DNA of 24,681 nucleotides from Eledone cirrhosa (lineage: Eukaryota). Under the pieces are notes generated by a model, which saw nothing but the letters and a program-made list of their open reading frames with translations, did no database searches and was not told the origin of the DNA. Both the position numbers and the translations under genes were made by a program. The stretch is taken from assembly GCA_964016885.1 (NCBI GenBank), contig CAXHJY010000170.1:1-24681 (forward strand), read 5' to 3'. Below, piece after piece: positions 2,177 through 14,935 of this stretch (positions are counted from its first letter, which is position 1; every line of letters begins with the position of its first letter).

Positions 2177-2213
<37 letters not shown>

Positions 2214-2292
2214 GCAATAATAATAATAACGACAACAACAATAATAATATACATATTCATATATATATACACACACACGCACGCACATAAGC

Positions 2293-2330
<38 letters not shown>
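1870..2330. repeat. Compound simple repeats: poly(A), (AAT)n, (TA)n, (CA)n
   Basis: Read directly; lies between the RTE stop codon and its 3' hairpin. Confidence 0.95.
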
Positions 2331-2338
2331 GATAGCAA

Positions 2339-3396
2339 CTAACAGTGCTGCGATCGAATGTGGCTTTTTAGCCCAGCCAATGATCTAAAATGTCTTGCAC
2401 AGAGTCGGCAACCAAAACATTTACTGGGAATAGTCGGCTGTGGTTGGAGTTCGTGTACTTTTGCATGTCGCTTGAGTCCTCCTGCTGATTTACATTCTCT
2501 ACCACATGTTTGGCAAGCATGATGAGTAGCATCTCCAACAGCAGCCTGGTAGTCAACCACTGGTCTTACTTTATGACTGCGAAGATGACTTTCGAGTCCA
2601 GCTTTGCTTAGGCAGAGTCTCGCACAGACGCCGCATGTCAGAAACATAGGAGGACCCTCGCCGTCTGGAAGTGCAACAGCAATACCCTTCCTCACGTCCC
2701 GCTTTACTTTCTCGTGTTCGATTCGAGATGCCTCAAAGGCAACTTTTCCCTCATATACAGTCTTTCTCCATTTATTACGATCAGCAGCAATATTTTCCCA
2801 TGTATCAGCAGAGATGTTAGCGTCTTTCAGAGAGGCCTTCAAGGAATCCTTATACCTCTTTTTTGGTTTATGTGGCGGTCATTTTCCTTTAACCAACTCT
2901 CCATAGAAGAGTTGTTTTGGTATTCTAGAATCCTTCATCCTGGCAAGGTGACCACTCCAACGGAGTCGCTGCTTAAGCACAAGAGCTTCTATACTGTCAC
3001 ACATAGAGCTTTCCAAAATCTCGACATCACTGATGTGGTCCCTCCAGTGAACGCCATGTATCCGTCTGAGACACATCTGATGGAAACGCTCCAATTGCTT
3101 AAGGTGGCGTCGATATGTGACCCAGGTCTCGCAGGCATAAAGAAGACAAGAGAGTACACATGCCCTGTACACCTTTACCTTTGTCCTCCTGCATATGTCT
3201 CGCCGACCCCAGAGTCGCCTTTCTAGCTTTCCGAAAGCATCACTTGCTTTCCTAATCCTAAGTGAGATTTCACCGTCAAGGTTGCCGTATCGATTGACAG
3301 TGCTTCCCAGGTAGACAAACTGATCAACCACTCCAAGTCGTTTGCCATACACATAGATGTTTGGTTCAGTGTACTGCCTACCAGGTGCAGGTTGGT
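2339..3396 (-). pseudogene. RTE ORF2 C-terminal remnant (post-RT region plus three C2H2 zinc fingers)
   Basis: ORFs 2879..3433 and 2339..2842 share one frame, broken by a single TGA at 2879-2881 (GK*PPHKPKKRYKD, where Arg is expected). Fingers: CGVC..SHLRSH, CQTC..RHAKVH, CRLC..SHIRSQH. Confidence 0.9.
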
Positions 3397-3823
3397 CTCG
3401 AGCGGTGGGGTAATCACAAACCGGTTCACACACGGGCAGGAGTCAAATGGTCAGAGAGGTGCATCAAAGGAGGTAGAAGAATTCACATGCATTAGCAAGC
3501 GAGGTGAGGTTAAAGCAAGCAGATACAGTTGTAGCGCATACAAAATATATATAAAAAGACAGAAGATATATATAAAAAAATAGCTTCAAGAGCCATTAAG
3601 TCACCGCATTGGGACATCACAAGATTGTACACATCAATATGTTCAGCACGTATATGCACGTATACACACCACATGCACATGCAGAGACGGTATACATATA
3701 TATATATATATATTTTTTTATATATACACACAGACACATATAACCACCTACACCCATACACATATAAATGTATACACGGGCACACACGCACACACACACA
3801 GCGTAGGACACCCGGGTCAAAGC

Positions 3824-3859
3824 CGATATTAAATACGATATTAAATACGATATTAAACA
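3824..3859. repeat. 12-bp tandem repeat (CGATATTAAATA) x ~3
   Basis: Copies start at 3824, 3836 and 3848. Confidence 0.9.
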
Positions 3860-4583
3860 CCGAAATACCACATTAGACCAGACCCACCACCACAGGTAAT
3901 ATATTCAAAACAAATACATACGATGAGATGTATTAAAATAAAGTTGAAATCCTACGGAGATATTCATGTCTGCACGTGCCATTGACCGATTCGAGTGTGC
4001 ACAGACCGTTAGTAACTACGGAGGGCCATCGGGGCCAAAACGTTACTTTCGGGATCATAAAAACGACCGTCAATATAAGGAAGGCCGATCGTGCTAGAAA
4101 GACTACAACCCCGGGTAAGAGCTCCCAGAGGTCAGCCTGTAGATCTTGAACCACAGAATATGAGGGCAACACATATATGCGCCACGTATCCACTGCTTAC
4201 GGCAGGATGGCACGGGTCCGCCACAGTTACAGGCTAAATTTCTACTAGTGCAGCCTAAATCACAGTACACGCTTTACATAAATACATTACATCACAACTC
4301 ATGCGCATACAGAGGTACAGATCAACAAGATATACGTCAGGATAGGTCCACCAATGCACTAATGGTGGGTAGGCCAGCGTGGATGGGTTACATCCACTGT
4401 ACCAAACAGGGATGCTTATTAACATACACTCCCCTGCACACCACAATATCAAGATCAATATCCTCCCACAGGCATACGTATACATTCACAGACTCGTATA
4501 CATAGACGACCAACATTAGGAGACAGTTACACTCAGTCAGAGACAGTTACACAAGACAGCCCAACTGGAGGAATAAGGACGTG

Positions 4584-7073
4584 CTACCTAACAGGTTTAA
4601 AGTAGAAGAAAGAGCTTAATATTCGGTGGGGGCAAGAGGAAAAAATTTCAGACTTTCTATTTAGTAGAGGGCATTTAGCAAATATAATAGAGTGGGATTC
4701 GGCAAGGCACAGGTTGCATACTCTACTATGAGGAGTATATGGATGGGATTTAGCAACCTGCCGCCAAGTAAGTGTGTAAGGTGTTCGTGCATTTTTTAAA
4801 TTATGGACGTACGCTGCCAAGGAGGTGGAGTTCTTCAGTTTATTATGTCTAAAAGTGCATTGATGAGAGTTAAACCTGGTCTTAAAGGGGGTGGAAGTTG
4901 ATCCTATATAGGTCATAGTGGACGCCGTAGTTACCACATCACACGCATAAACTATGTTTCTAACAAGGCAGAAACCATTCAGGGGGCAGCCCGAAGCCCT
5001 TCTACAGTTACAACCTCTGGTGATGCTATTCTCAGAAAGATCACCACCAGTGTTACTGCCCACTCTATCCACTACCGTGTTTTCCCCTAGGCTTAGGTTG
5101 TCCAGGCCTTCCTTTATTTTCTTATTATTAGTAATGGCCAGATGAGAGGCCAGATTTTGGGTTGTAGAATATGAAAGTTTAACAACATTCTTATTGAGGA
5201 TAGAGTGGTACCTATTACCAGGAGGGAAGTTCCGTTCTAGCACAGAGAAGAAGGCCCTAGGAATATTTGTAGCCACTTCAGAATTAAAAGGGGGGTTGAA
5301 GTATGTATTCAATCTTCTTCTATTCTTTTTATTCTTTCTATTTCCATCAGTATTATTAGCATTATTATTTCTACGGTTCCTATGCTCACCTAGTCCATGC
5401 GGGGAGCTGCGAGGCCCACCATTGCTATTACTTAGACTAATGGTGCCCTGCTGGTTCATTCCACCGGCATCTAGAAACCTCCCGTTCACGACACCTCTAT
5501 TGTTATTACTTAGACTAATGGTGCCCTGCTGTTTCATTCCACCGGCATTTAGAACCCTCCCATTCGCGACACCTCGATTACCAATGGACATATTATGTGT
5601 TATAACAACACTGGTAGAGCTACTATTAGGACCATTATTTCCCTGGGTGTAATACAATTTGTCCCTAAAGCCGGATCTAGCTAAGGCGTCGTTATAGTAA
5701 TCAGCCTGCGAGTCAAACGCCTCCTCACTATGTGAGAGTGAACTTATTCTATTAGATACGCCTTTCAGTATACCGCTGATGACAGACCTAGGGTGGTTGG
5801 AGTAGGTATTCACGTAAGTCAGCAATTCATTGGGCTTATGGTACGGTGTGTACGTATGGTTATCCAAGTCCAGTGTAACATCTAGGAAGTTCACAGTTCT
5901 ATCATTTACATCCATTGTAATGGATAGGTTAAAAGTTTTAAAAAAGCTATGCAGCTTTTTCCTAATGCGCTCTATATTATACTTACTAGTATCTATGGAG
6001 AGTAGGGCGTCATCTCGGTACAACCCACCCCTAAGGAAAGGGAAGTTACTATGCAGTTCATTGAGGAGGTATAGTCCAACTAAGTCGGTGACTTGAGCAG
6101 AGTCACTCGACCCCATAGTGATGTCAAAATTATCAGGTGTGTTTTTTCTCGTCCATAGATTATCCTCAAACATGATAATGGTTTTACGTGCAGCGAGAAC
6201 AATATCTATCTGTGGCCTAGTAATTGCCCCCCTCCGCATGGCTAGGATGAGGGCCTTATTGAGGATAATAGGAGATATAGATGTATAATAAGCATCAATA
6301 TCAAATTGGATGAATTTTAGTGAGTCACGACCACAATCAGTAGAGAACCATGTAATGACCTCACTAGTGTTACCCCAAAGCTCAAGGAAAGTTTTTTCTC
6401 TAACCAGGGGAATAACGCTATCCAAGATTCCCTTACTAATAATCCCCAGGTCAGACTTGGAGGGGCAGATAAGCCTAACCGAGGGTCTGCTAATAAAATC
6501 TTCCTTGTGGTCCTTGAGGGTGAATCTAGGCTGCCTGGGGTAATAAGGCTGAGTGTGTTTATCCAGACCTAATTTTACCACTATGTTATACCCCTCCAGA
6601 TTAATATTATCTAAATTACTCTGCGTTGTTTTTTTGTAGTTCCTATGTAGTTCATTATAAATGAAGCCTCGATAGGTTTTATAATCCATACTATATAAGT
6701 TTTTAGTTTTGTCAGAGGGGACCAGAATGGATTTATTATCCCTAAAGTCCCTAACGATTGAACTTAGTTTACTCTGAAATTTATTGGTACATCTAGATTT
6801 TTTATATCTAATATTCCTAACAAGGGATAATAGCTCACTTTCGAAGTTATCCAACAGGCTATTATGCGGGGGGCTCCTATAGGTCTTTAATCCATAATTA
6901 TTAAAACTACGCCTCTCCTCAGGGCTATCATACCTCCTATCAAAGTGGAACGCACGCCACCGAACACGTTTTACGAATGAGTTTATGCTAGTTATCAATG
7001 ATTTCTCATACGAGATTTTAGGGGGGGTGGGAATATTCTTCAAGGAAATGGGTAAGTATGTCTTTGTTAGCAT
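4584..7073 (-). CDS. PLE polyprotein: reverse transcriptase plus GIY-YIG endonuclease (829 aa from the first ATG; open frame extends to 7130)
   Basis: VPSDKT (variant of the PLE DKG motif), TLKDHK..RLICPSKS, motif A FIQFDIDAYYTSI, motif B TMGS, catalytic GLYRDD (YRDD at 6009-6020), VNFLDVTLDL, YVNTYSNHP. Linker CNCRRASGC (CxCx5C). Endonuclease IVY..YIGST..FKTRFNSH..CNLCLAE..LLN..CPH. No stops or frameshifts. Confidence 0.95.
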   Translation of the reverse strand: MLTKTYLPISLKNIPTPPKISYEKSLITSINSFVKRVRWRAFHFDRRYDSPEERRSFNNYGLKTYRSPPHNSLLDNFESELLSLVRNIRYKKSRCTNKFQSKLSSIVRDFRDNKSILVPSDKTKNLYSMDYKTYRGFIYNELHRNYKKTTQSNLDNINLEGYNIVVKLGLDKHTQPYYPRQPRFTLKDHKEDFISRPSVRLICPSKSDLGIISKGILDSVIPLVREKTFLELWGNTSEVITWFSTDCGRDSLKFIQFDIDAYYTSISPIILNKALILAMRRGAITRPQIDIVLAARKTIIMFEDNLWTRKNTPDNFDITMGSSDSAQVTDLVGLYLLNELHSNFPFLRGGLYRDDALLSIDTSKYNIERIRKKLHSFFKTFNLSITMDVNDRTVNFLDVTLDLDNHTYTPYHKPNELLTYVNTYSNHPRSVISGILKGVSNRISSLSHSEEAFDSQADYYNDALARSGFRDKLYYTQGNNGPNSSSTSVVITHNMSIGNRGVANGRVLNAGGMKQQGTISLSNNNRGVVNGRFLDAGGMNQQGTISLSNSNGGPRSSPHGLGEHRNRRNNNANNTDGNRKNKKNRRRLNTYFNPPFNSEVATNIPRAFFSVLERNFPPGNRYHSILNKNVVKLSYSTTQNLASHLAITNNKKIKEGLDNLSLGENTVVDRVGSNTGGDLSENSITRGCNCRRASGCPLNGFCLVRNIVYACDVVTTASTMTYIGSTSTPFKTRFNSHQCTFRHNKLKNSTSLAAYVHNLKNARTPYTLTWRQVAKSHPYTPHSRVCNLCLAESHSIIFAKCPLLNRKSEIFSSCPHRILSSFFYFKPVR
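5421..5580 (-). repeat. In-frame 78-bp (26-aa) tandem duplication inside the PLE ORF
   Basis: NRGVANGRVLNAGGMKQQGTISLSNN / NRGVVNGRFLDAGGMNQQGTISLSNS; the DNA copies start at 5421 and 5499. Confidence 0.95.
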
Positions 7074-7238
7074 ACTGCCTGATAATATACAAGGACATTT
7101 AGTGCCTTCGTGGGCCCCTGATATATTCAAGAGATATATTCTAAAAAAATATATATCTTATCTCAATTTACTTTATTTCATTTTATTTTATTTCATTTCA
7201 TGTTATCTAATTTTATTTATTTACTTACTTGACTCCAT

Positions 7239-7277
<39 letters not shown>

Positions 7278-7346
7278 TATTTAAATTTAGATTTTAATTT
7301 AAAAATTTAAAAATTTAAATTTTAATTTTATTTATTTATTTAATTT

Positions 7347-7378
<32 letters not shown>

Positions 7379-7637
7379 TTACATTTAATTACATTTAATT
7401 ATACATATAATTATAATTATACATTTGATTTTAATTTTAATTTAGTCTATGTTATTTGATTTTAGTTTACCTTATTTTATCTTATTTTACGATTATACTA
7501 TATTATGTTCTATGTATATAATTTTTAATTTTTAATTTTATATTATTTTATCTCATTCCTTACCCTATATTTTATATTTTATATGTAAGTTTGTTATGTA
7601 TTTCTTTGTATTTCTTTTTATATATATTATAAGTCTG

Positions 7638-7755
7638 TTTTTTACCTATTTTTTACCTATTTTTTACCTACTCTTACCTAATCCCATTATCTTATCTACT
7701 CTTGTCTGTTCTCTTATCCATGTGTCTACTCTTGTCTGTTCTCTTATCCATGTGT
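7638..7755. repeat. Short tandem repeats: 11-bp TTTTTTACCTA x3 and 30-bp TCTACTCTTGTCTGTTCTCTTATCCATGTG x2
   Basis: 11-mer at 7638-7670; 30-mer copies at 7695 and 7725. Confidence 0.9.
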
Positions 7756-7940
7756 ATGCTTGTATGTAACTATATGTTGACAGCACACCGCCCAACTGTG
7801 ACTGATAGCACCCCATATTTTTATTTTTATTTTTATTTTTACTTTTATTTTTATTTTTATTCTTATCCTCTATCGTCTATTATTACCTTTCATTCTTCAA
7901 TGTCTTGGATTTGTTATTGCTTGTATGGTATGTAATTAAC

Positions 7941-7998
7941 CTTTATGCTCTGATGAGTCCCACTTATAGTGCGGATGAAACAATGTTAGCAAGTAAAG
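7941..7998 (+). ncRNA. Type I hammerhead ribozyme (PLE-type, short stem III)
   Basis: Stem I CTTTA-TGCT / AGCA-ag-TAAAG; core CTGATGA (7950-7956); stem II GTCC-CAC ttata GTG-c-GGAT; GAAA (7977-7980); stem III AC-aat-GT; cleavage triplet GUU, predicted cut after 7987. Confidence 0.88.
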
Positions 7999-8132
7999 AT
8001 ATGCATATGCTATAAGCGCTCTTTGTTATTTATTTATTATATTACGGCTCTGTCCTCAGACATTGAGCTAACCTCATACTGCCTGCTGGATAAGTGGAGT
8101 GTTATACACCCCTGATCCTTTCCCTAGCATAC

Positions 8133-10414
<2,282 letters not shown>

Positions 10415-11398: not shown

Positions 11399-12690
11399 TC
11401 TCTTTTACCTGTTTCAGCCATCCGGCTGAGGCCATGCTGGGGCACCGCCCTTGTTGCTACACATTTTATCTCCAGCCTGTATAGGTTGGCCACTGGTGTA
11501 GGAGGGAGTTTGTTGCTGCTGCCCTTAGGTTTCCCTCGTGTCTTGCTGTGGGCTCATCCGGGATCCTGGATAAGAAGGTGTCGAGATGTTTCTTAAAGAC
11601 ATCCACCTCCACGTCATGCAATCTCGCAGATGCCTCGGCAGCCTGTTGAAGAGTTGAGGGCCCTTGAATCCCAGGCTATTGCAATACCTGCTCCTTATTC
11701 TAGATGTGGAAGACGGGACCTTTGGCACCACACAGTGACGTCCTGTTCGACGGTTGGTCCAGCTCCCAATGCCAAAGTTTGGTGCTAGTCCCTCCAGGAT
11801 TTTCCACATGTAGATCACTGCGTATCTCTCCCGTCTTCGCTCCAATGTGTAGAGGTTCAGTTCCTTCAGCCTCTCCCAGTAGCTTGTCTCCCTCATCTTG
11901 GCAATCCTCTTGGTGTAGCTTCGCTGGATTGCCTCAAGCTCTGTGGTTAGTTTGACACTATGGGGTGACCACAGCTGGGAGCAGTAGTCCAGGCGGCTTA
12001 GGACAAAAGTCCTCCACATTGTCAACATGGTGTCTCGATCTCTTGTAAGGAAAGTCCTCAAGATCCAGCCAGCGAATCGTCTACATGCTGTCGCCACCTT
12101 CAAGATGTGTGAAGAAAAAGATGCATCATCGCTCATGTCTATGCCCAGGTCTCATATCGATTTTGATACGGGGATATCGGTCCCTCCTGGTCCTGTGTAG
12201 CTGTGTTCCGCTATATTTGTGTTTGTGTTTGCAGGTTTGTATTGTAGGGCTTGGAATTTGCCAGCATTAAACTGCATGTTGTTTTCTTCCGCCCATCTGT
12301 ATATGGCATCCAGATCCTGCTGTAAGAGGGCAGCGTCAGCCGGGTTTTTGATTGCCTGTGCTACCTTAGTGTCATCAGCATAGCTAGTGAGGGATGTTGT
12401 TGCATGCACCACAGAGGGCATGTCCGAGAGAGCCACCAAAAACAGTAGTGGTCCCAGGACTGTCCCCTGAGGCACCCCACTTGTTATCGGTGTTTCCCTC
12501 GAGAGGGCCCCATTTGCTGCGACTGCCTGGCTTCTGTCCCTTAGGAAGCCATGCAGCCACTCACTACTTTTCCAGTTATGCCGAGTCCGCGTAGTTTGTG
12601 ACATATCATTCCGTGGTCGACCTTGTCAAAGGCCTTCGCAAAGTCAAGATATATCACGTCTACATGTGAGCTGTCTAGTAGTTGTCTCAT
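11399..12690 (-). mobile_element. 5'-truncated, frameshifted CR1-group LINE, copy B (different family from A)
   Basis: VDVIYLDFAKAFDKVDHG (~12610-12665), SGVPQGTVLGPLLF, SYADDTK, LQQDLD, SRLDYCSQLWSPH, YTLERRRERY, and FKKHLDTFLSRIPDEP in a shifted frame. Frameshifts near 12565, 12150 and 11620; true stop at 11466-11468; 3' tail ends ...GAAACAGGTAAAAGAG. Confidence 0.92.
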
Positions 12691-13545
12691 GTGTTCTTAT
12701 ATTTAATATAGAAGTTTATCTAGTGTAACGTTTATTCGAAATATTTGGAGCATCAACTTTTAAGGTAGTTTAATTTTTCATGAAGAATGTTTAAATAAAA
12801 ATAAAAAGAAAAAGAAGAATAAAAAGAAGAAATCGAAAGATTTATCGGCTAGTTTCCCAAATAATTATAAATCAAACTAAATATACTACATTTTAAATTT
12901 AAATTTATATTTAAAAGTTGAGTTTAATCTATGTTTGCAGCAACTGAATAAATTTGTCCGTAGATTAAGGGAATTTTTAGATTTTAGTATAAAGAATATC
13001 TCCTCTGCGCAGAGGTCACATGTCTCAGAGGATGAATTAAAAGGAATCCCTCTTGAGACTATATTCCAAGCCGTCGAATATCTAACGTTATCTAGCTTAA
13101 GTTGCCAGAGTACGCCTGATAGTGCTGTTGAAGATTTTTTGCTTGGATCTGTGAAAGAATTCTTGTGGTTATTATAGCGAAGTTTAAATGCCTTTAATTC
13201 ATCCTCTGAGACATGTGACCTCTGCGCAGAGGAGATATTCTTTATACTAAAATCTAAAAATTCCCTTAATCTACGGACAAATTTATTCAGTTGCTGCAAA
13301 CATAGATTAAACTCAACTTTTAAATATAAATTTAAATTTAAAATGTAGTATATTTAGTTTGATTTATAATTATTTGGGAAACTAGCCGATAAATCTTTCG
13401 ATTTCTTCTTTTTATTCTTCTTTTTATTTTTATTTTATTTAAACATTCTTCATGAAAAATTAAACTACCTTAAAAGTTGATGCTCCAAATATTTCGAATA
13501 AACGTTACACTAGATAAACTTCTATATTAAATATAAGAACACATG
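12688..13545. repeat. Near-perfect inverted repeat, arms 12688-13041 and 13193-13545, 151-bp spacer
   Basis: The arms are reverse complements apart from small differences in an A/T-run block (~12793-12815 vs ~13420-13440). Confidence 0.97.
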
Positions 13546-14668
13546 TAGACCAAATGGGCATCCTAAACTTTTTGAAATGATTTTTGCTAGACGCGATTTG
13601 ATAAATAATTTTTAGCTTTATCTGTTTTCGACTCTGATGCTTATAATGAACTTGGCAATATATTGTCAATTAATTTCGAAGGGTTGATCTTTGTGGTTTG
13701 TTTTTATTATTGTAGTATTTTCTAATATTTTTATTTTTAATATGTAATATTTTTAATATGTAATATTTTTTCGTAATATTTTTTTAGTTTTCTATTTTAT
13801 TATTATTTATTATTATTATTATTATTATTTTTTTTGGTTTTTGTTTGTGATATTTTTTATTAATATATTGAAATCTGTTCTCTATTTCTGCTTGATAGAT
13901 AATCACGTAGAGTAAAGACAAGATTAGTAGTAATATAGACTCTATATATATGTGTATATATATACACATATATGTATACTTAAATTTTTATAGCACAATG
14001 AGAATGTTCTCCGTGGAAAATTGGGGTTTGCAGAGTTGATCACGTAAATTCACATCGATGTTTGTAGTTATCATATAAACATATGAATTTTTAAAACTAA
14101 ACATAAGATCATTACTTTTCACACATTATGGATACGTGTCTCATTCAGGAATACTGATATTTACATTATAGTGCCTGGTTTTTATACATACTAATACTTC
14201 TACATTAAAACATAGGTTTTTTATGCCTCGCCTATGTCTGGTTACTTTTCATTTTCTCTCTATATAACAGCTGGTTTCTCTCCTAACCACATATATCTCC
14301 CTTACATTAATACTAGAGCTAAATAAATAAATAAATAAATAAATGTATCATTGATACGTTTATTCAACGGATGTCCAACCACCTACTTTTCTCTATATAT
14401 CTATCTCTATCTATCTCCTCTCTCTATATATATCTCTCTCTGTTTCTTTACATGAAGTTCTTCTCTTTATCTATCTTTCCATCTCTCTATTTTGTTCCAT
14501 GCATTTCTTCTTTTTCTTCTTTTTCTTCGTTTTCTTTCTTTCTTTTCTTTCTTTCCTTTTTTCTCTCTTTCTTTCTTTCTGTTTACAATTTTTTTCACTG
14601 CCAAATCAACTTTTCAAATACAAGTCGATGTTGAACGGTATGTCAAATCTATTTATCTATAAAACTGT

Positions 14669-14749
14669 CTATATTGTATTTTGTCTGAGGAAGGCATAGC
14701 ATATTGTTAATATGATATCCCTGAAATATATATAATGAAATAAATATGG
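14669..14749 (+). ncRNA. Type I hammerhead ribozyme with palindromic stem III
   Basis: Stem I CTATATT-g-TATTTTGT / ATGAAATA-AATATGG (with G-U pairs); core CTGAGGA (14685-14691); long stem II AGG-c-ATA-g-CATATT gtt AATATG-a-TAT-c-CCT; GAAA (14723-14726); stem III AT-atat-AT; triplet AUA, predicted cut after 14734. Confidence 0.85.
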
Positions 14750-14784
14750 TTTTATAAATATAGTTTTCCATTTATTTAATATCG

Positions 14785-14935
14785 TATATACATATATATA
14801 TATATACATATTATACTATATATACATATATATAAATATATATACATATATATACATATACATATATATATATATACATATAATATAATATACATATATA
14901 TATTATACATATATATTACATATACATATATATAC

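Follow-up and report, generated by a model that had tools for sequence, protein, structure and literature searches.

An antisense hammerhead motif beside a PLE of Eledone cirrhosa probably lies on an inverted copy of the element's own 3' end

A type I hammerhead motif lies upstream of, and antisense to, an intact PLE ORF in a 24,681-nucleotide stretch of Eledone cirrhosa DNA (contig CAXHJY010000170.1 of assembly GCA_964016885.1, forward strand; hereafter the window). We conclude, with a probability of about 0.9, that it is the hammerhead which a Hydra-type PLE normally bears at its 3' end, carried here on an inverted, 5'-truncated copy of that end that likely arose in the same insertion as the ORF arm, and that it likely came to lie antisense passively, as a by-product. 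The features of the locus are given below in window positions; "ref" positions count along a natural whole copy of the element, L061:1942-7008, which served as the reference.

2201..3396, minus strand: 5'-truncated RTE-like LINE, lying where the sense 3' end of the PLE is expected; blunt junction
3397..4583, minus strand: what remains of the ORF-arm 3' UTR, truncated at ref 3726
4584..7073, minus strand: intact 829-aa ORF (ATG at 7073, stop at 4584) with RT, C-terminal GIY-YIG and Hydra-clade motifs
7094..7096, no strand: inversion junction, a 3-nt microhomology common to both arms, 23 nt upstream of the ATG
7094..8133, plus strand: inverted, 5'-truncated 3' arm ending in (TA)n, equivalent to ref 4019-5067 at 97.8% identity
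7941..7998, plus strand: type I hammerhead motif with a weak palindromic stem III, cut predicted after 7987
8043..8133, plus strand: tail of ~91-94 nt between the short terminus (8042, ref 4976) and the long terminus
8134..10400, no strand: (TA)n-type microsatellite at the end of the element, its target site

Judged from its ORF motifs, its hammerhead placement and its (TA)n target, the element is a Hydra-type PLE. The single ORF carries an RT followed by a C-terminal GIY-YIG domain without CCHH. DKT is found at residue 121, YRDD at residue 352 and, at residue 38, RWR, a conservative change from RWK; IVY and YIG stand at residues 707 and 722 with no CxxC between them, and a CxCX5C linker, CxxC and CxH beside a conserved E and N are located at residues 688, 786 and 814. 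The available part of Craig et al. 2021 (PMC8557442) gives DKT, RWK, the CxCX5C linker, the absence of CCHH and CxxC/CxH around E and N as features of the Hydra clade, together with (TA)n targets and a 3' hammerhead in sense orientation whose stem III is short and palindromic. Here too the hammerhead is canonical, sense and close to the 3' end (ref 4884 of 5067), and all 16 right flanks examined begin with a TA run. By eye, motifs are held in common with Hydra-1_Obim and Hydra-1_Ajap. Pfam matched no family to the ORF (4584..7073, minus strand), and the 120 homologs listed among 1245 matches showed 34-46% identity, none bearing a PLE name. In contrast to Hydra elements as presented in the same part of PMC8557442, which are "generally <3 kb" (a tendency that is not diagnostic), the E. 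cirrhosa unit is 5.07 kb long with a ~2.5-kb 3' UTR; it also differs in its 829-aa ORF with an Asn-rich repeat insert and in its ~91-94-nt tail. The Asn-rich stretch (window 5150-5600, minus strand; 19% N over residues 491-640) lies between RT and endonuclease and holds an ~80-bp internal duplication; N-rich inserts are described for rotifer Penelope ORFs in the accessible part of PMC3846280. Three other classes were ruled out: Naiad/Chlamys by the C-terminal endonuclease, Neptune/Nematis by the missing CCHH and the CxCX5C linker, and non-LTR retrozymes, defined in the accessible text of bioRxiv 10.64898/2026.07.22.740005 as short non-coding tandem repeats with a hammerhead in each, by same-strand neighbours about 4-5 kb apart and units that carry an ORF. 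The family may already be catalogued in repeat databases.

In the whole copy the order is an upstream 3' module (pLTR), a 68-nt leader, the ORF, the ~2.5-kb 3' UTR, the hammerhead, the end and (TA)n. The hammerhead is sense to the ORF, its core about 2.3 kb beyond the stop, which supplies the family-level orientation that the earlier reading of the window, made from sequence alone, had proposed to record from genomic copies. The family is young: its hammerhead core has 916 exact matches genome-wide (reversed control 0), and 20 copies show 0.5-3.9% mismatches to the ORF arm. Variants read from public contigs, which reveal neither ends nor strand, revealed a sister subfamily, for which the genome contains 211 exact matches (reversed control 0). 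The complete 829-aa ORF is present in 8 of 25 scored starts, 4 further starts being cut off by the ends of their loci. Another 12 of the 25 (L061-L137) end after 18-26 codons, near an early C run, through either true frameshifts or homopolymer assembly errors. Short internal duplications in the 3' UTR (L061:5660-5960) produce length differences, the distance from ref 3723 to ref 4019 being either 184 or about 290 nt, and these mark subfamilies.

Comparison with the whole copy divides the locus into two arms. The ORF arm (3397-7096, minus strand) corresponds to ref 3726-46 at 98.2% identity; it lacks the upstream pLTR and ends at the 5'-truncated RTE (3397). The two arms cover non-overlapping portions of the reference. 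An inverted pLTR whose sense partner was lost at the RTE junction, one of two options offered by the sequence-only reading, thus describes the locus well: 7094-8133 is an inverted 3' end, and the ORF arm stops at 3397. The failure of that reading to find a sense copy was likewise borne out, as the ORF arm is cut at ref 3726 and the window contains no second copy of the motif anywhere. The opposite idea, that 7140-8132 belongs to an unrelated element, is excluded by the 97.8% identity of 7094-8133 to the whole-copy 3' end. The LINE fragment at 2201..3396, called RTE-like here in keeping with the sequence-only reading, is 98.7-99.6% identical to all 7 copies compared. Several C2H2 zinc fingers (Pfam) are encoded at its end (window 2342-2878, minus strand), followed by a microsatellite-like 3' stretch that other copies have in common. 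Its junction with the PLE was seen at this locus alone when 40 of 1572 candidates were scored. The sense 3' end could have been lost through RTE insertion with deletion, through a later deletion or through a misjoin of the 24.7-kb contig.

The sequence-only reading had correctly placed the motif on the plus strand and the ORF on the minus strand, 868 bp from the ATG (given there as about 870), and had called this orientation unusual. The family does not uphold that judgement. Among the first 100 of the 916 main-family matches listed, 28 close pairs (<=10 kb) were found, 21 outward, 7 same-strand and 0 convergent; the first 100 of the 211 sister matches listed gave 24 outward, 4 same-strand and 0 convergent pairs. 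At 27 of the 29 other ORF-start loci the family 3' end lies directly upstream in sense orientation (23 identified by BLAST and 4 by reading the sequence, some loci being one shared insertion), with the hammerhead present in 25 of them. Penelope-13_HM has the same layout as the window, its 5'-truncated inverted copy (nt 1-966) bearing an antisense (strand-1) hammerhead, and in the Hydra rows of the supplement of PMC8557442, so far as accessible, hammerheads are sense in all listed cases but this inverted arm. PLE hammerheads in the accessible part of Cervera and de la Pena 2014 (PMC4209133) also occur as close pairs on opposite strands. The excess of outward over convergent pairs indicates that an antisense hammerhead on an inverted arm is routine.

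An inverted arm could nevertheless be functional at this locus, a bidirectional pLTR promoter driving the ORF from 23 nt upstream while the hammerhead trims the divergent or antisense transcript. The ORF is indeed intact with the junction just upstream of its ATG, and the accessible part of PMC3846280 proposes a bidirectional pLTR promoter and antisense templates for rotifer Penelope. However, the junction 7094-7096 was found in only 1 of 30 ORF-start loci, and inversion breakpoints differ from copy to copy. Moreover, the window hammerhead has no same-strand partner in the window, and the ORF arm lacks the 3' end that bears the priming sites. We therefore regard a functional arm as highly improbable. 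Processing of an antisense or divergent transcript, the second option of the earlier reading, gained no support at the family level; in the whole copy the hammerhead is sense to the ORF.

Slightly less probable again is an origin of the two arms, or of PLE and RTE, in separate events or an assembly join, with an independent short copy lying beside a truncated one. In favour of this, the contig has a length of just 24,681 bases, most of them microsatellite, and the RTE junction is blunt and unique. The inversion junction itself, however, contains neither (TA)n nor foreign sequence at 7094, just the 3-nt microhomology, and the same architecture recurs in 22 insertions, some of them on the largest contigs. 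Both arms are also nearest to an overlapping group of copies (rank correlation 0.87 over 20 copies). The clean junction and this correlation, which copy age alone could yield, favour the preferred reading, in which both arms have a common origin.

The hammerhead itself has the build that the sequence-only reading had described. The core comprises CUGAUGA (7950-7956) and GAAA (7977-7980), and the GUU triplet (7985-7987), an NUH triplet, predicts a cut after 7987; 7941-7998 (plus strand) thus contains the type I elements CUGANGA...GAAA and NUH. Stem I (7941-7949 with 7988-7998) has 9 bp and a 2-nt bulge at 7992-7993. Stem II (7957-7976) has 7 bp, a 5-nt loop, a bulged C7972 and a G-U pair adjoining the core. 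Stem III, only 2 bp with a 3-nt loop, falls within the nearly self-complementary ACAAUGU, the 7-mer 7980-7986 being a palindrome around a central A, as that reading had noticed. With three stems, stem I open, and pairing preserved between main and sister variants, the motif is of type I. The minimum-energy fold (-11.9 kcal/mol) does not include stem III. Forming it costs 3.7 kcal/mol (-5.6 kcal/mol for the monomer hammerhead fold vs -9.3 without stem III), and the palindrome would pair with itself at -1.6 kcal/mol, as expected if the hammerhead is of the dimer type. In what is accessible of PMC4209133, minimal PLE hammerheads are likewise type I motifs with a palindromic stem III in terminal repeats; plain monomers did not cleave, while dimers and versions with an extended stem III did so weakly. 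Unlike these published motifs, the window motif has a long stem I (9 bp, bulged) and, in the main family, G-U at N10.1-N11.1. By eye, none of the accessible File S2 rows of PMC8557442 matches its sequence.

The hammerhead search proposed by the sequence-only reading did not recover the motif: none of the 12 matches (E<=10) from a scan of 2200-8140 with Rfam cmscan was a hammerhead, and on the whole window the 150 of 389 matches listed, swamped by microsatellite, included 0 hammerheads. An Rfam match is no requirement of the hammerhead definition, and published PLE hammerheads were located via structure descriptors, according to the accessible parts of PMC8557442 and PMC4209133. The pattern CTGANGA-N8-38-GAAA occurs twice in the window vs 0.03 times expected. 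Conservation of core and stems across copies, the test set by the earlier reading, was borne out by the sister subfamily, whose motif differs at 6 of 58 positions: N7, loop II, the stem II bulge, the centre of loop III, the stem I bulge and U11.1. The first five are unpaired, and U11.1 to C turns the G-U pair into the canonical G-C. Placing 5 of 6 differences in the 11 unpaired positions of 58 has p about 5e-4, in a single comparison with 0 two-sided compensatory changes. The flanks of the motif are 43/62 and 103/127 identical between the two subfamilies. A low-depth variant in the public contigs alters U16.1. That the motif is a chance core-like sequence under no selection is hardly credible, since despite the missing Rfam match and an unremarkable folding z-score (-1.58; 13 of 200 shuffles equally stable) its sister differences spare the pairing while the flanks diverge, and its position and build agree with the Hydra hammerheads published in the accessible part of PMC8557442. 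At the sequence level, the core pattern count and the sister differences confirm 7941-7998 as a real hammerhead motif, beyond chance.

Copies of the family end at one of two positions, ref 4976 (short) or ref 5067-5070 (long; window 8133-8136, where the last bases blend into TA). From 67 insertion clusters we obtained 22 inverted insertions with two hammerhead-bearing outer ends in view, and every one had one long and one short end; a cluster with three termini was left out of this count, and the remaining clusters showed a single terminus or same-strand ends. Thirteen of the 22 had been chosen by their ORF start and 9 by a query favouring the long end. The same rule was followed by 4/4 sister pairs and by 4/4 pairs of a second family in the genome, in which the tail is about 85-90 nt. 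In both subfamilies the tail region folds with a hairpin at the tail start (a fold run without a shuffle control). Both the inverted 5'-truncated copy and the tail restricted to one end are standard PLE features in the accessible parts of PMC8557442 and PMC3846280, the former giving a tail of 30-40 bp at one end and the latter one of 31 bp. The ~90-nt spacing of the termini is three times the published tail, and no PLE tail of ~90 nt was found in the open-access literature searched, so far as its text was accessible. The one-ended tail is thus already known qualitatively, and the tail length of ~90 nt and the strict end rule are the added points. As the inverted arm of the window is a long end, the lost end of the ORF arm was probably short (tail-less), still with its sense hammerhead.

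Among 30 loci, the 5' ends of copies fell neither on the cut site, ref 4922, nor on the edge of stem I, ref 4875, the nearest being 4909 and 4861, a small sample in line with an uncleaved template. One main-family mini-insertion (L166, G000:C1:239432900-239433900), found among the 21 outward pairs, is a small palindrome with one long and one short end, its two arms joined at the 5' stem I edge.

These results lead us to propose, tentatively and at a little under even odds, that Hydra-type PLEs depend on obligatory two-site priming: two fixed RT start sites, spaced by about 90 nt and both downstream of the hammerhead cut, would each serve one end of an insertion. As the cDNA would run through the cut, the template would have to be an uncleaved or circular RNA. 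In our main reading of the window locus, the GIY-YIG domain would have nicked both strands of the (TA)n target, and the RT would have primed once at each fixed site on a longer-than-unit sense RNA read through the hammerhead. The two cDNAs would then have run toward each other and joined via the microhomology at 7094-7096, one arm halting after 1.05 kb and the other ending 23 nt upstream of the ATG without entering the upstream pLTR. The ORF arm may originally have ended at the short terminus, its own sense hammerhead included, with about 1.25 kb lost later where the RTE now sits. In the family, the ribozyme would most likely cut the sense precursor RNA, though weakly, acting as a dimer or assisted by protein; the window hammerhead, which lacks a same-strand partner in the window and could act only on a plus-strand transcript, is probably idle. 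Of 24 public sequencing runs listed, 18 are RNA or guessed to be RNA, and none of these 18 contained more than 0.04 of the sampled words, a share that gives no evidence of expression.

A close parallel is the Anolis Poseidon element PAc, for which the accessible part of Frangieh et al. 2024 (PMC11167929) reports that, in vitro, the tail lies between two RT start sites, that both target strands are extended, that uncleaved RNA is the main template and that the ribozyme needs protein. Like PAc, the E. cirrhosa family has two fixed termini downstream of the hammerhead cut that define the tail, and copy ends that do not pile up at the cut site. In PAc, again from that part of the paper, the hammerhead overlaps the start codon and RT starts inside the ORF, whereas in tandem E. 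cirrhosa copies about 215 nt separate the cut from the ATG that follows it and both termini are upstream of the ORF, ~91-94 nt apart.

The oddity flagged at this locus is therefore ordinary PLE anatomy and makes no case for pursuit as an antisense ribozyme. Two things are worth keeping. One is a young Hydra-type family that has a long 3' UTR and intact ORFs. The other, seen in two families of this genome, is the strict rule of one long and one short end, with a tail of ~90 nt, which could help to test how PLEs build inverted ends and whether the hammerhead acts in transposition. Should two-site priming be true, the family would allow direct tests of the inversion mechanism and of the ribozyme role, given its roughly 1,100 hammerhead copies, its intact ORFs and the simplicity of its (TA)n target.

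The second PLE-like family, unrelated but alike in layout, is also represented in the window (12683-14785). The arms of this insertion, 12683-13040 and 13192-13549, form inverted repeats (99%) that enclose the remnant of a GIY-YIG C-terminus with Hydra-like motifs; its left arm is cut by a LINE fragment, and its plus-strand arm stays collinear with other copies as far as about 14785, with a hammerhead-like motif at 14685. A pattern search with a 22-nt core of this family gave 6,349 exact matches genome-wide. Seven short palindromic insertions of the family (L158 and L168-L173, on G000:C1), chosen for their spacing, have 165-173 nt between outward-facing cores, and their differing centres suggest a non-autonomous subfamily whose 5' end is fixed at about 85 nt upstream of the core.
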